The notes below the pieces were generated by a model, which saw nothing but the letters and a program-made list of their open reading frames with translations, searched no databases and was not told the origin of the DNA. Shown here in pieces: positions 726 to 8,376 of a stretch of 12,211 nucleotides of DNA. Where the stretch lies: assembly GCA_029259185.1 (NCBI GenBank), contig JAPDJF010000052.1:1-12211 (forward strand), read 5' to 3'. The first letter of the stretch is position 1. Each line of letters begins with the position of its first letter. Source of the DNA: Hadesarchaea archaeon (GTDB lineage Archaea > Hadarchaeota > Hadarchaeia > Hadarchaeales > WYZ-LMO6). The position numbers were made by a program, and so were the translations under genes.

Positions 726-1127
726 CTATCTCACCACCCTCTCCACCTCAACCACCACATCGTACGTGTAATAGCTTGTCTTCACAGGATAAGCGTTCCG
801 GGGAAAATCTCCAGCTATCGCTTGGTGGATGAACCTCAGCGCGTCTTCCCTCACCTCGTTTTCGATTGTCTGGTCATGGGGTGGTGGCCCTCCCACGACT
901 AGAAGGGAAATGGAAACCTCGCCGTTTTTAAAAGATACCTTCTCGATCCAAATGGTGACCCCATACTCGGCCTCAAGCGCGATGATGGCGTTCTCGGCTC
1001 CCAAGGAGGCGGCGGATTTGACGATTTCGACTTCTCTAGACAAGTTTCCAGCGTATACGATGGAGGTGGCGGTTAACACGATCACCCCTATCAGGATCAA
1101 CGTTTCAACACTCGCTTGTCCCCTCAT
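726..1127 (-). CDS. Type IV pilin-like protein, class III signal peptide (DUF361-like)
   Basis: MRG|QASVETLILIGVIVL: Gly -1, Gln +1, Glu +5, hydrophobic helix. ATGA overlap with the upstream gene. Confidence 0.88.
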   Translation of the reverse strand: MRGQASVETLILIGVIVLTATSIVYAGNLSREVEIVKSAASLGAENAIIALEAEYGVTIWIEKVSFKNGEVSISLLVVGGPPPHDQTIENEVREDALRFIHQAIAGDFPRNAYPVKTSYYTYDVVVEVERVVR

Positions 1128-1543
1128 ACGTTTGCGACCTCCACGCGGTCGTTCTCCCAGTAGATCCGGATGGGCTTTGAGGGATCCAGCTGGTGAATCA
1201 ATACGTTGCAGACTACCCCCGTTTTTACCTCGGGTCCCGAAGAGGGTTTCACGACGATCTCTCGAGTGGAATCGTCGAAGCTCACCGAGTATTCATCTCC
1301 CCCGATTTTTTCAGGTAAATCGATACGGAGTTCGAGTTCCGGTCCATTAGCGTAAACGGTGTTTATGGATGCTGCCAGTTTCTCCCCCACCACTTTGGCT
1401 TCCAGAGTAGTTTCAGCGGATTTCGCGACGATCAATCTCGATCGGTGAAGGTTCGAAAGAGAGGAAAAAACGAGCACGAGTAGAGCAAATGCAAGCAAGA
1501 GATCCATCGAGAAAAATCCTTCGCTCGATCTCACTTTACGCAT
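1124..1543 (-). CDS. Pilin-like protein with variant class III signal peptide
   Basis: MRKVRSSEG|FFSMDLLLAFALLVLVF. Shares the pattern LAASINTVYANG with its neighbours (IAEAMNTVYGNG, IKNALNTVYAGG). Confidence 0.8.
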   Translation of the reverse strand: MRKVRSSEGFFSMDLLLAFALLVLVFSSLSNLHRSRLIVAKSAETTLEAKVVGEKLAASINTVYANGPELELRIDLPEKIGGDEYSVSFDDSTREIVVKPSSGPEVKTGVVCNVLIHQLDPSKPIRIYWENDRVEVANV

Positions 1544-1988
1544 CCCCCGGCTTTATCCTGATGTATATCCTTTGACCCTCCTGGACCAGATTTTCCTCTT
1601 CTGTCCATTCAACGATAACCGTGTAAGTCCCGGCCGGAATACTCCTCAGGCTAGCATCGAAAGCATACTCGACAGCACTTCCGACGTTCTCCGTCCTGTC
1701 CGAGATCCCGATGCTTACCTTCACCTCGGGAGGATTTCTGGTCAATAGCAGGTCCCACCGATGCTCTAGGCTGACCAGAACAGACCGGACGGCACCGCTC
1801 CCGTTTCCGTAAACGGTGTTCATAGCCTCGGCAATGATATCGGAGGCGAGCCTAGCTTGGGAGAGCAACGATATATCTCTTGATGCCTCCCGAGAGGGAT
1901 CTATCAGTTGGGTTGAGGTGAGGGTAGCTACGGTGATCAGCATGACTACGAATATCAAGAGATATTCGGTGGCGGCTTGACCCCGCAA
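1536..1988 (-). CDS. Type IV pilin-like protein, class III signal peptide (DUF361-like)
   Basis: TTG start with GGGTGA RBS. MRG|QAATEYLLIFVVMLI (Q+1, E+5). Confidence 0.88.
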   Translation of the reverse strand: MRGQAATEYLLIFVVMLITVATLTSTQLIDPSREASRDISLLSQARLASDIIAEAMNTVYGNGSGAVRSVLVSLEHRWDLLLTRNPPEVKVSIGISDRTENVGSAVEYAFDASLRSIPAGTYTVIVEWTEEENLVQEGQRIYIRIKPGDA

Positions 1989-1992
1989 ACGT

Positions 1993-2514
1993 TCACCCGC
2001 CTCGAATAGTGATATATCTTCGACCCCCTCTGTACTCGTAAATGAGGGTCACCTGGTGGAGACCTTGGGCGATTCCAAAGTTTTCGTCGTTGATGATCAA
2101 CGAGTTTTCGTTCACCCCACTCGGGAGGATCGTGTTCAGGAGCACCACAGCCTCCATCTTGTTGTCCCACTGTCCGTCTTCGTTTAAATCCAGCCAGATC
2201 TGAACATCCATACGATTGTCCGAACTCACCACCCCATCGCTCGTGACTATCCCATCGGTGCTGGCGTTCGCGTGAATTCCGACGATCCCCTCAGGTAGGC
2301 GGTATCCGAAAACTACTCTAGATCCAACTCCACCCGCATAAACCGTGTTGAGAGCATTCTTTATATCCAGTGCGGCTTTGCGTGCGTAGGCGAGCTTAGA
2401 GATTTTGTCAGCGTCATCCCGTGAATGCTGGTACATGGGGATCGAAATGGCGTAGGCTATCAGCAACACTCCCGAAAGGACGACGATGAACTCGATGCTG
2501 AGCTGACCCCTCAT
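1993..2514 (-). CDS. Type IV pilin-like protein, class III signal peptide; first gene of the operon
   Basis: MRG|QLSIEFIVVLSGVLLIA (Q+1, E+5). Contains a DLNEDG motif. Confidence 0.88.
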   Translation of the reverse strand: MRGQLSIEFIVVLSGVLLIAYAISIPMYQHSRDDADKISKLAYARKAALDIKNALNTVYAGGVGSRVVFGYRLPEGIVGIHANASTDGIVTSDGVVSSDNRMDVQIWLDLNEDGQWDNKMEAVVLLNTILPSGVNENSLIINDENFGIAQGLHQVTLIYEYRGGRRYITIRGG

Positions 2515-2546: not shown

Positions 2547-2800
2547 GTGACCTCCTCCCTCGCTTTCGCAGGGGGGCTTCCACTTTTCCCTCGCGCTTCG
2601 CGGAAGCTTTCCCCGCTTTAGCGTGCTCTAGCCCCTGCTTCATCCACCGACCCGATCCCATCCCCCTTCGGGCGGTTACGGAGATCCAATGCCCATCCTA
2701 CCCGCCTCGTGCAGGTCATCGGTTTTCCAGGGCGTTGGGTTCGGGGTGACCCTCCCCACCTCCCGGAAGATTTTCGGCTCTCATCCCCAGCTCTCCCAGG
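2547..2800 (-). ncRNA. Orphan TnpB omegaRNA-like structured RNA ending in an IS200/IS605 right end (5' boundary uncertain, about 2760-2860)
   Basis: The 3' end reads GAAG-CCCCCCTGCGAAAGCGAGGGAGGAGG-TCAC (GAAG guide with TCAC cleavage motif). Scaffold-like motifs: CCCGAACCCAACGCCCTGGA, an ACCGAT/GTCGGT stem and GATGAAGCAGGG with CCCTG/CAGGG complementarity. No tnpB-like ORF is adjacent. Confidence 0.65.
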
Positions 2801-2871
2801 GGGCCCGCCGACAGAGTTAAACCGGTTTACGAATTTCGCCAACTACCTACCAGCGCCCCGGAGCCGATGGC

Positions 2872-2886
2872 GAGAGCTTTTAATTT
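2872..2886 (+). promoter_or_regulatory. Probable BRE/TATA of the aro operon
   Basis: GAGAGC-TTTTAAT about 30 nt upstream of the TTG start at 2915. Confidence 0.55.
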
Positions 2887-5554: not shown

Positions 5555-6435
5555 TCACAGCTCGGACTGAGGTTTTCGCTCTCATCGGGGATCCCGTGGA
5601 GAAGAGTCTCTCCCCAGTGATGTACAATGCTGCATTTCGATTCTTCGAAATGGACAGCGTCTATGTCGCTTTGCGCGTGCCCCCCTCCTCCTTGCGGGAG
5701 GCCGTCTCCGGAATGAGGGCGATGGGTATCAAAGGGTTCAACGTGACCCATCCCCACAAGACCAAAATCCTCAGGCTGCTTGATGGGCTAGACCAATCGG
5801 CGGAGGAGGTTGGAGCGGTAAACACGGTTAGGAGGGTGGGTAATAAATTGGTGGGGTTTAACACGGACGGTCAGGGAGCGATCAAGTTCCTCAAGGAGGA
5901 GATAGGCTCCTTGAAAGGGAAGAAGGTCGTGATACTGGGAGCGGGGGGTGCGGCAAGGGCTTTGGCCTTCACGCTCACGAGGGAGGGAGCTAACCTCACC
6001 ATTGCGAATCGGACGGTGTCGAAGGCGAGGAGGCTGGTTTCGGAGCTGGAGGGGATTGAAGTCGAGCTTTCCTGGTGCGGTCTCGAAAGGAGAGTACTGA
6101 GGAAAATTCTAAAGGAGGCCGACGTGTTGGTGAACGCCACTCCGGTGGGCATGGGGGGGCGGGAGACGCTCGTGCGTTCGGATATGATGGACTCTTCCCT
6201 TTTCGTGTTCGATCTGATCTACTACCCCCTTGAGACCGCGCTGATGCGAGAGGCGAGGAAAGCGGGAGCTAAGGCGGTAAACGGACTCGGGATGCTCATC
6301 AACCAAGCGGTCTTGGCCTTCAAGATATTCACGGGCAAGGATGTCCCCCCACGCGTGCTCAAGGAAGCTGTAAGACTTCAGTTGGGAAAGATCGGGGTCA
6401 ACTACCCTTCCCTAAAGGATGGGCTTGCAGGGTGA
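5551..6435 (+). CDS. aroE: Shikimate dehydrogenase; last 12 residues and stop codon are supplied by the IS right end
   Basis: SLSP, GFNVTHPHK, GAVNT, NTDG, GAGGAARA, NRT, NATPVG and GLGMLINQA motifs. The tail VNYPSLKDGLAG reads through the IS end from 6397. Confidence 0.95.
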   Translation: MITARTEVFALIGDPVEKSLSPVMYNAAFRFFEMDSVYVALRVPPSSLREAVSGMRAMGIKGFNVTHPHKTKILRLLDGLDQSAEEVGAVNTVRRVGNKLVGFNTDGQGAIKFLKEEIGSLKGKKVVILGAGGAARALAFTLTREGANLTIANRTVSKARRLVSELEGIEVELSWCGLERRVLRKILKEADVLVNATPVGMGGRETLVRSDMMDSSLFVFDLIYYPLETALMREARKAGAKAVNGLGMLINQAVLAFKIFTGKDVPPRVLKEAVRLQLGKIGVNYPSLKDGLAG

Positions 6436-6525
6436 TCATCATGTCCGAAGACACTCAGACCCACACGGGGCCGGTTGACGGGGCGGCCCATGGAGGGAGA
6501 GCCGGCTCTCCGCTCCAAGTTCACG
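6397..6525 (-). ncRNA. Putative omegaRNA (right-end RNA) overlapping the tnpB 3' end
   Basis: GC-rich stems (GGGCCGCCCCGTCAACCGGCCC) followed by the right-end hairpin. Established architecture for TnpB elements; 5' boundary approximate. Confidence 0.55.
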
Positions 6526-7226
6526 CGGGCAACCCATCTCCCCTCCTTCGAGCCGAGCCGTTTCAGCCTGCGCTTGGCAGACGGCTTGCCTTTGGCTTGG
6601 AGGGAGGAGCGCAAGGCTCGAAAGTGCTGTCTTCGTTTGAGAATACCTTTGCCCCTGACCTTGAAGCCGTTGGAAGCGACGAGCAAATTGTTCATTCCCG
6701 CATCAACAGCGGCTGGGTTATCTCCTTTTGGCTCCGGGACTTCTCGCTCGACGGTGATGTGCAGGAAGAACCGCTTGTTCTTGTAGGTGAGCACGGCGTG
6801 GGTCGGCTTGACACCCTCGAGCAGTTTCCGCTGGTATTCGCCTATTTTGAGCGGGGGCTTGATCCGCTTCTGAACCGTTGCGATGGAGGCGTGCCACCCG
6901 TCGGGCTTCTCGAACACACGGAAGAGCCTAGCGTCGAGGTCGAGCGAGAGCTTGTCGAACCGGAGGAGCCTGTTCCGCCTTTGCTTGTATGCTTTGGCCA
7001 CCCGATCCCTGGCGCGGATTGCGAGGTTCGCAGGCAGGCCGAATTTGGCCCTGGTATCTCTGTAAACCATGTGGTGCAGGGCGACGGGGTTGAACACCCT
7101 GCGCTCGAAGGCGATCTTGGAGATGTGGTTGCAGGCATCCCGAAAAGCCTGGAGCGTGGCGAGGAGCTTATGCCGTTCCTCGTCGCTGAGCTCAAGCCTG
7201 CACGCGACGGTCTTGGCGAGCCTCAT
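6402..7226 (-). CDS. tnpB: TnpB, internally deleted and predicted nuclease-dead (may be a pseudogene)
   Basis: N-terminal FRDACNHIS, wedge-region IGEYQ and FFLHITVE, RuvC-I AVDAG, and bridge helix RRLKRLGSKEGRWV, which then joins directly to ARVNL. No RuvC-II Glu segment, no CxxC pairs, no RuvC-III Asp. Confidence 0.85.
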   Translation of the reverse strand: MRLAKTVACRLELSDEERHKLLATLQAFRDACNHISKIAFERRVFNPVALHHMVYRDTRAKFGLPANLAIRARDRVAKAYKQRRNRLLRFDKLSLDLDARLFRVFEKPDGWHASIATVQKRIKPPLKIGEYQRKLLEGVKPTHAVLTYKNKRFFLHITVEREVPEPKGDNPAAVDAGMNNLLVASNGFKVRGKGILKRRQHFRALRSSLQAKGKPSAKRRLKRLGSKEGRWVARVNLERRAGSPSMGRPVNRPRVGLSVFGHDDHPASPSFREG

Positions 7227-7250
7227 CAGAACAGCGTATATGCATTTTCA

Positions 7251-8303: not shown

Positions 8304-8376
8304 AGCCCCGGGTGGGCTTTGAACCCACGACCTATCGCTTACAAGGCGATCGCTCTACCCGCTGAGCTACCGGGGC
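8304..8376 (-). tRNA. tRNA-Thr(TGT), no intron, CCA not encoded
   Basis: GCCCCGG acceptor stem, D arm GCTC-AGCGGGTA-GAGC, anticodon arm ATCGC-CTTGTAA-GCGAT, T arm GTGGG-TTCAAAG-CCCAC. TATA-like TTATAATT at about 8398-8405. Confidence 0.97.

Follow-up and report, generated by a model that had tools for sequence, protein, structure and literature searches.

A probable palindrome-associated transposable element with an omegaRNA-type scaffold upstream of a pilin-like operon in a Hadesarchaea archaeon

The 12,211-nt contig JAPDJF010000052.1 of a Hadesarchaea archaeon (assembly GCA_029259185.1; order Hadarchaeales, WYZ-LMO6), the whole of which was analysed and is referred to below as the window, carries an archaeal type IV pilin-like operon on its minus strand and, divergently on its plus strand, an archaeal shikimate operon comprising a DeoC-type aldolase (aroA'), dehydroquinate (DHQ) synthase II, dehydroquinase and shikimate dehydrogenase. 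Between the two lies the subject of this report, a protein-less miniature element of 275 nt on the minus strand (2821-2547), which runs from a TTTAAC motif to TCAC and whose limits were set by the extent of homology to other copies and by profiles of its two ends, the left (LE) and the right (RE). A first-pass annotation of the same DNA had placed at 2547-2860 an orphan, domesticated guide or scaffold RNA related to the omegaRNA (obligate mobile element-guided activity RNA) of TnpB. The pilin-like operon (726-2514, minus strand) consists of four consecutive small genes, at least two of which encode class III signal peptides and one of which has a weak DUF7266 match; it lies downstream of the element on the same strand, with an ATG at 2514 that is 33 nt from the element.

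Read 5' to 3' on the minus strand, the element begins at TTAA (2820-2817), which is preceded by a T at 2821 and followed by a conserved first base C at 2816. We infer that this tetranucleotide is the left cleavage and target site (C_L), and likely the core of the transposon-adjacent motif (TAM) of TnpB; if the cut falls after TTAA, the element proper would be 2816-2547. The left end (2816-2770; LE profile match at 2821-2770) comprises a linker and then a degenerate hairpin (2803-2785, CCCCCTGG-GAGA-GCTGGGG). The omegaRNA-scaffold core (2760-2633) includes a small 5' hairpin, CCCGAACCC, a CCCTG/CAGGG basal stem and an enlarged central arm (approximately 2726-2645), and is followed by a family-specific 52-nt insert with two small hairpins (2632-2581) that lies between GAAGCAGG and the right-end guide. 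The right end itself (2580-2547; RE profile match at 2600-2547) consists of the guide tetranucleotide GAAG (G_R, 2580-2577), an imperfect hairpin whose loop is GAAA (2576-2554) and, after 6 nt of linker, the cleavage site TCAC (C_R, 2550-2547). The motifs on which the first-pass annotation had built were all found on the minus strand by direct reading: beside GAAG-hairpin-TCAC these are CCCGAACCCAACGCCCTGGA (2745-2726), ACCGAT (2723-2718), GTCGGT (2651-2646), GATGAAGCAGGG (2644-2633), and the hairpins CGC-TAAA-GCG and CGC-GAA-GCG (within 2623-2592). By the TnpB rule, in which the guide is the DNA beyond RE, a 16-nt omegaRNA guide is predicted at 2546-2531, in the flank 3' of TCAC. Two open reading frames (ORFs) overlap the element by chance (74 and 72 aa), both crossing its boundary and neither with a Pfam match at E <= 1; there is no protein-coding gene inside, and the element is indeed, as had been proposed, without a tnpB of its own.

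It is not an orphan, as had been supposed. A search of its own assembly (1.27 Mb in 54 contigs) returned nine matches, the window copy included, and those at other places have E-values of 1e-103 to 1e-80, far beyond chance. The common boundaries of the copies were placed by blastn at 2821 and 2547, and in an alignment that included the flanks homology extends from TTTAAC to TCAC while the DNA outside is unrelated; positions 2822-2860, previously counted as part of the RNA, are therefore unique flank. A left end, said earlier to be unrecognisable, is also present: the stretch 2821-2770 is common to some 35 other places in the genome and to full-length insertion sequence (IS) copies (35 left-end-like matches to the LE profile at E <= 1e-5, and 21 matches to the RE profile at E <= 0.01). 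Matches occur in 11 of the 61 genomes of the order, own genome included, reaching 19 in one relative (G035) and 14 in another (G011), and the carriers include other genera of the same order; the element was not found in any of the five genomes of the sister genus. In loci from related genomes, LE and RE are paired at spacings of 238-342 nt. Numerous near-identical copies at unrelated loci, complete with left ends, were the outcome that the first-pass annotation had itself named as contrary to its proposal and as the mark of an ordinary miniature inverted-repeat transposable element (MITE), and this is what the census shows. The same results make it extremely improbable that we are dealing with a chance purine-rich, hairpin-rich intergenic stretch or with some unknown housekeeping RNA. 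The lack of an Rfam match and the non-significant folding z-scores reported below would agree with such an origin, but matches of this strength at other loci, a patchy spread across genomes, and ends common to elements bearing tnpA and tnpB all argue against it.

Protein-less derivatives of IS200/IS605 elements are described in haloarchaea as palindrome-associated transposable elements (PATEs). The copies found here belong to more than one family. Family A, that of the window copy, is represented in its own genome by three complete copies (275 nt in the window, 300 nt at C2:71787-72086 and 293 nt at C9:6581-6873) and three partial ones, of which one is cut off by another IS, one is internally deleted and one consists of the 5' part only; family-A copies are also present in G035, G011, G053 and G055. 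A profile search of the same genome recovered five copies (238-265 nt) of a sister family, B, which agrees with family A over its first ~55 nt and over most of its interior, and in which GATGAAGCAGG joins the terminal hairpin directly. The 52-nt insert is absent both from family B and from the parent IS described below, and measures ~90 nt in the copies of G035, G011 and G053; judged against family B and the parent IS, the insertion of about 50 nt and the enlarged central arm to which the first-pass annotation drew attention are real.

A third protein-less family of ~377 nt was seen in the same genome at C19:3603-3982 (minus strand) and C8:47118-47493 (plus strand). Its two copies are 97.6% identical and combine a related left-end hairpin and a family-A-type right end (GGAGGAGGTCAC) with a wholly different, GC-rich and hairpin-rich interior. 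This is the only place outside family A in which the GGAGGAGGTCAC right end was detected, and a full-length IS of family-A type, with tnpB, the 52-nt insert and the GGAGGAGGTCAC end, was found neither in the own genome nor in the fetched loci. In G011, two miniature elements sit back to back, one per strand, on a palindromic GTTAAC (L031:1733-1738), which fits a TTAA target because TTAA reads alike on both strands. Many contigs of the own assembly start or end inside IS copies (C34:1, C34:7436-7723, C53:994-1197, C19:125, C44:125 and C15:76-127); further copies have therefore probably been merged during assembly, and an intact tnpA or tnpB may have been lost in the process.

The first ~55 nt of these elements have a common layout in which TTTAAC is followed, after about 13 nt, by AAGT, a GNRA-looped hairpin and ATGAGAG. 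The same left end lies upstream of a Y1 transposase gene (C9:42044-42385; Y1_Tnp, 84.8 bits, one in-frame stop) in a 988-nt unit (C9:41487-42474) with the order LE, Y1_Tnp, tnpB fragment and RE, the last of which is a family-B right end. It likewise precedes tnpA N-termini at two contig ends, and LE-tnpB-RE units of 1235-1618 nt are present in six related genomes. A comparison of 60 distinct left ends (32 of them in the own genome, 28 in relatives) shows TTAA at the site in 55 cases, TTAT in four and TAAA in one, with flanks that diverge upstream of it. The tetranucleotide at the hairpin foot changes with the site: TTAA is accompanied by AAGT in 43 left ends, and every TTAT is accompanied by AAGA, which occurs in these four and no others. 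The remainder are TTAA with AAGC (four), TTAA with point variants of the guide (seven), TAAA with AAGT (one), and a single TTAA left end from which the tetranucleotide is absent, that of the window copy. At the right end, GAAG goes with TCAC in the element, and CAAG with TGAC in an unrelated IS elsewhere in the window. A guide tetranucleotide matching its cleavage site is found family-wide at LE, though it is deleted from the LE of the window copy itself, and is present at RE as well. For IS608, the pairing of individual guide and site bases is known from structural papers. In that element the left cut falls 19 nt 5' of its hairpin and the right cut 10 nt 3' of its own, each cleavage site being recognised by a guide of four nucleotides that immediately precedes the foot of the hairpin on the 5' side (He et al. 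2011, PMC3201880). The natural covariation of guide and cleavage site in the present families follows the rule known from IS608.

The other IS of the window (6397-7247, minus strand) is a remnant of a different family, with a truncated TnpB of 281 aa (OrfB_IS605 at 3.2e-05, below cut-off) and a right end composed of CAAG, a hairpin with a TTTA loop, and GTTGAC. A second copy of this IS, at C2:61872-62680, is inserted in and truncates a family-A copy (C2:62686-62917). What had been described as the mobile copy at 6405-6424 is the right end of this unrelated remnant.

In ISDra2-type elements the omegaRNA is encoded at the 3' end of tnpB up to RE, and its guide is taken from the flank beyond RE. 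The near-complete cognate tnpB of the own genome (C34:2-1120, 373 aa) is situated at a contig edge; its product has HTH_OrfB_IS605 and OrfB_IS605 domains (the latter at 2.2e-28) and the first half only of a TNB domain, and aligns to ISDra2 TnpB (PDB 8bf8) over residues 3-312 with an E-value of 3.5e-38. Six orthologues with 71-78% identity and open frames of 384-434 aa were found in other genera (L085-L090); together with the C34 copy itself (L084) they make up a subfamily of 373-434 aa that is open in seven genomes of several genera. The zinc ribbon CxxC...CxxC is absent from the C34 protein and from all six orthologues, which have QNIPEGF or a similar stretch instead, and the acidic motifs DVG, E and DRD are kept, with the exception of a DRG in L088. 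These proteins end in a conserved 45-residue tail, with the stop codon 6 nt before the transposon end. The last ~125-134 nt of the C34-type IS and of its six orthologues, that is, the tnpB tail plus RE, align with the interior of families A and B. In the parent this tail folds into a small 5' hairpin, a GAAC/GTTC closing helix by the boundary, a CCUG/CAGG base that bears a long central arm, and the RE hairpin (double changes at 2 of 46 pairs); the miniature families have the base and ends of the parent and central arms that are different and longer. The earlier recognition of an omegaRNA-type scaffold joined to an IS605-type right end, and expanded relative to its parent, is thus upheld by homology to the tnpB tail and RE.

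Conservation of pairing is indicated by an RNAalifold prediction from ten family-A copies of four genomes, in which 71 pairs are maintained in 94.2% of alignment cells, as against 43-53% when the partners are slid by 1-3 columns. Double-sided changes occur at 8 of the 71 pairs, compared to 4.0+-1.4 in shuffled alignments, a value reached by 3 of 500 shuffles, and the RE hairpin is among the covarying helices (helix 13). The copies in which these eight pairs changed are themselves related. RNAalifold pairs CCGATG with CATTGG and places GTCGG in a long-range helix; the ACCGAT/GTCGGT stem put forward earlier is also possible, and the two are not distinguishable because the columns hardly vary. 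Mean pairwise identity is 0.83 in LE, 0.62 in the spacer that follows it, 0.83 in the scaffold core, 0.72 in the family-A insert (0.63 between genomes) and 0.85 in RE. A scaffold kept as well as the transposase-binding ends is expected if the RNA helps the element to persist.

Conserved pairing would also fit single-stranded DNA, because IS200/IS605 elements transpose as folded single strands. The interior might then be maintained not as RNA but as DNA, for instance through additional contacts with TnpA, or because the pilin operon has exapted it as promoter or 5' leader; the element adjoins the core promoter of that operon, 33 nt from the ATG. We regard such a role as unlikely, since the interior is homologous to the 3' end of tnpB up to RE, precisely the stretch that encodes the omegaRNA in ISDra2-type elements, and since copies are found in many unrelated contexts, so that a function specific to the pilin operon cannot explain conservation across the family.

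The window copy stands apart from its relatives at the left end. A 4-nt deletion has removed the AAGT guide before the LE hairpin, the sole such case among the 60 left ends, and a C-to-G change breaks the loop-closing pair of the hairpin; contigs from three sequencing runs reproduce this sequence. Six runs, all DNA and none on record as RNA, were listed as containing the stretch, and contigs of four runs (X3-X6) were compared with the locus. Contigs bridge both element junctions in X3-X5 and the RE junction alone in X6, none has a joint that skips the element, and run contigs break inside the repeat. In addition, a metagenome contig (L074) whose pilin gene is 100% identical begins inside the RE of the element and contains the RE junction. 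Mutation of the left guide abolishes the synaptic complex in IS608 (PMC3201880), and by analogy TnpA would presumably be unable to excise the window copy. Because the LE guide has been lost and all the populations sampled have the copy at this locus, it is probably immobilised.

On its pilin side, the element directly adjoins an AT-rich motif, ATTTTCAA, found again upstream of the pilin homologues at nine metagenome loci, and the predicted guide (2531-2546) overlaps the operon's AT-rich core promoter. A scan of metagenome contigs with the pilin protein returned ten loci, one at 100% and nine at 59-62% identity; the nine have a different upstream neighbour, and inspection by eye of up to 330 nt upstream of them (116 nt in L080) did not reveal the element. 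On the shikimate side, GCTTTTAATTTCG (2872-2884, plus strand) lies upstream of the DeoC-type gene and matches CTTTTTAATCC at the same place in the four relatives that were read (of five DeoC orthologues); its position and conservation make it the likely archaeal TATA box for the shikimate genes. The TATA-like motifs noted earlier upstream of the RNA can be reassigned, one (2817-2821) to the conserved TTTAA target of the element itself and the other to this probable plus-strand promoter of the neighbouring aroA'. In all five sister-genus genomes the DeoC orthologue has a different, co-directional upstream gene, and an orthologous empty site is therefore absent there; the synteny between pilin operon and aroA' that the first-pass annotation had thought worth seeking does not extend to these genomes.

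With the locus described, the proposal of a domesticated, independently transcribed guide or scaffold RNA, working in trans with a TnpB-derived partner in some host function of the TldR kind, can be weighed. Several features are in keeping with it: tnpB is absent from the element, the copy, having lost its LE guide, may be fixed, it occurs in all four runs compared and in L074, the scaffold core is well conserved, and the guide overlaps a promoter. We nevertheless consider it very unlikely. The element is multi-copy and has both transposon ends, it was not found in the five sister-genus genomes (where, moreover, the DeoC locus has another upstream neighbour), and the candidate TnpB keeps its three RuvC acidic motifs and so does not resemble a nuclease-dead regulator. 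The predicted guide, whether taken as 16 or 20 nt, has no second match in the own genome at <=2 mismatches, and at its own locus the guide sequence is preceded by RE (TCAC) and not by TTAA; the RNA, if made, would therefore be without a target unless an empty allele exists. A bolder variant, which we think quite unlikely, has the window copy as a PATE that TnpA can no longer remove now that the LE guide is deleted, that has become fixed in all populations sampled, and that stands at the outset of domestication with its expanded omegaRNA module intact. If transcribed and loaded onto a zinc-finger-less TnpB, such a module would cleave chromosomes that lack the insertion at the pilin promoter, and would thereby serve as a drive or addiction device for this allele of the pilin operon. 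Were this true, PATE-borne omegaRNAs that have been freed from coding may evolve arms that tune TnpB or compete for it.

Given that both ends are kept and that the interior is homologous to the tnpB tail and RE scaffold, we interpret the element at 2547-2821 as a PATE/MITE with an omegaRNA module, namely a non-autonomous, protein-less deletion derivative of an IS200/IS605 insertion sequence of an ISDra2-like TnpB lineage, and put the probability of this reading at roughly 85%. We hypothesize that a Y1 transposase (TnpA) acting in trans would excise the top strand of such elements and insert it 3' of TTAA. As the element has no tnpB of its own, any RNA made from it would need TnpB in trans, and a transcript consisting of the scaffold and ~16 nt of right flank would be bound by TnpB made elsewhere; this complex would then cut the empty donor joint (TAM plus flank), leading to the element being copied back. 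The family-A scaffold, no longer coding for the C-terminus of TnpB, may have been at liberty to gain a larger central arm and the 52-nt insert. In the window copy, TnpA should be prevented from assembling on LE by the deleted guide and the disrupted loop-closing pair, and the outcome would be an immobilised relic fixed upstream of the pilin operon, with a guide RNA that, if made, would lack a substrate.

A number of observations weigh against reading the element as a PATE with a working omegaRNA module. A 22-nt AT-rich segment that follows LE in most other copies, and that may be a promoter, is absent from the window copy, as it is from two damaged copies. The only near-complete cognate tnpB is the contig-edge copy without the CxxC zinc ribbon; this ribbon-less form is kept as an open frame in six other genomes, and loss of the zinc finger has been reported for some branches of TnpB (PMC10691335). 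No intact tnpA was found in the own assembly, even the best copy being interrupted by an in-frame stop. For this base composition the minimum free energy is ordinary (z -0.38 over 2540-2870; z -0.63 over 2547-2765), and that of the opposite strand is better (z -2.27). The covariation is modest, from copies that are related and non-independent and with a structure predicted on the same alignment. Rfam, another of the checks suggested beforehand, gave no relevant match: at gathering scores the only feature to pass in the whole window is a tRNA gene (8304-8376, minus strand, 71.1 bits), and at E <= 10 there is nothing relevant in 2450-2950, the best being RT-3 at 15.2 bits against a cut-off of 40.5. 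Because an Rfam family match is absent, it is homology to the 3' ends of tnpB, and no curated model, that identifies the scaffold as an omegaRNA. An empty site was not found (there are no joints skipping the element in the four sequencing runs, L074 carries the element, and the relatives are non-syntenic); the exact cut positions given here are therefore putative, and so is what is said of the mobility of the window copy. Transcription and processing of the scaffold, its binding by TnpB and TAM-adjacent cleavage are predictions only.

A PATE with an omegaRNA module is an already known and ordinary kind of selfish DNA, of which family A is a further case, and these results leave the current understanding of IS200/IS605 elements unchanged. 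They do remove a false lead, in that the element is not a domesticated orphan RNA, and they provide a clean archaeal example of IS200/IS605 modularity, in which the scaffold lies wholly inside the last ~125 nt of a zinc-finger-less, ISDra2-like tnpB and two miniature families keep only the ends and this scaffold. What a scaffold freed from coding can accommodate is seen in the miniature copies: a variable central arm and an insert of 52-90 nt before the RE hairpin. This tolerance could inform the engineering of omegaRNAs for thermophilic TnpBs. Among the literature matches listed, no work on Hadarchaeota or Hadesarchaea with TnpB or IS605 was found.

Comparison with known systems places the element as follows. 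It resembles IS608 in where the cleavage sites lie, the left one 5' of the LE hairpin and the right one 10 nt 3' of its RE counterpart, and in having, as a family, a tetranucleotide guide at each hairpin foot that covaries with its site across element families; it differs in a left-end spacing of 17 nt instead of 19, and in the combinations TTAA/AAGT and TCAC/GAAG, where IS608 has TTAC/AAAG and TCAA. With ISDra2 TnpB and its omegaRNA (PDB 8bf8, 8exa and 8h1j) it has in common a scaffold that overlaps the 3' end of tnpB and runs to RE, and a predicted guide formed by the flank beyond RE. In contrast to ISDra2, the C4 zinc finger is absent from the TnpB subfamily found here, and the RNAs are not linked by Rfam or any other sequence model. 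The target motif also differs, being TTAA and not TTGAT, as that of ISDra2 reportedly is.

TldR proteins are nuclease-dead forms of TnpB that have been domesticated and have fixed guide RNAs (Wiegand et al., preprint PMC10705468). TldR guides are similar to the present element in that a scaffold of TnpB origin is found without an adjacent active transposase. They are dissimilar in that transposon ends are kept here, copies are many and synteny is not conserved; the guide is without a distant target, and no dead TnpB partner was identified. The closest likeness is to PATEs, which often encode omegaRNAs that need TnpB in trans (Meers et al. 2023, preprint PMC10055086) and of which PATE-like minimal IS605 elements in Geobacillus stearothermophilus are an example from the same source. 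Like these, the element has no ORF, measures 240-340 nt, is multi-copy, has subterminal hairpins at LE and RE, is inserted next to a fixed short motif, and carries an omegaRNA module that would need TnpB in trans. It differs from them in its host, an uncultured Hadarchaeota archaeon from hydrothermal vents (according to run labels), in a scaffold that is expanded relative to the parent, and in a window copy that has lost its LE guide.

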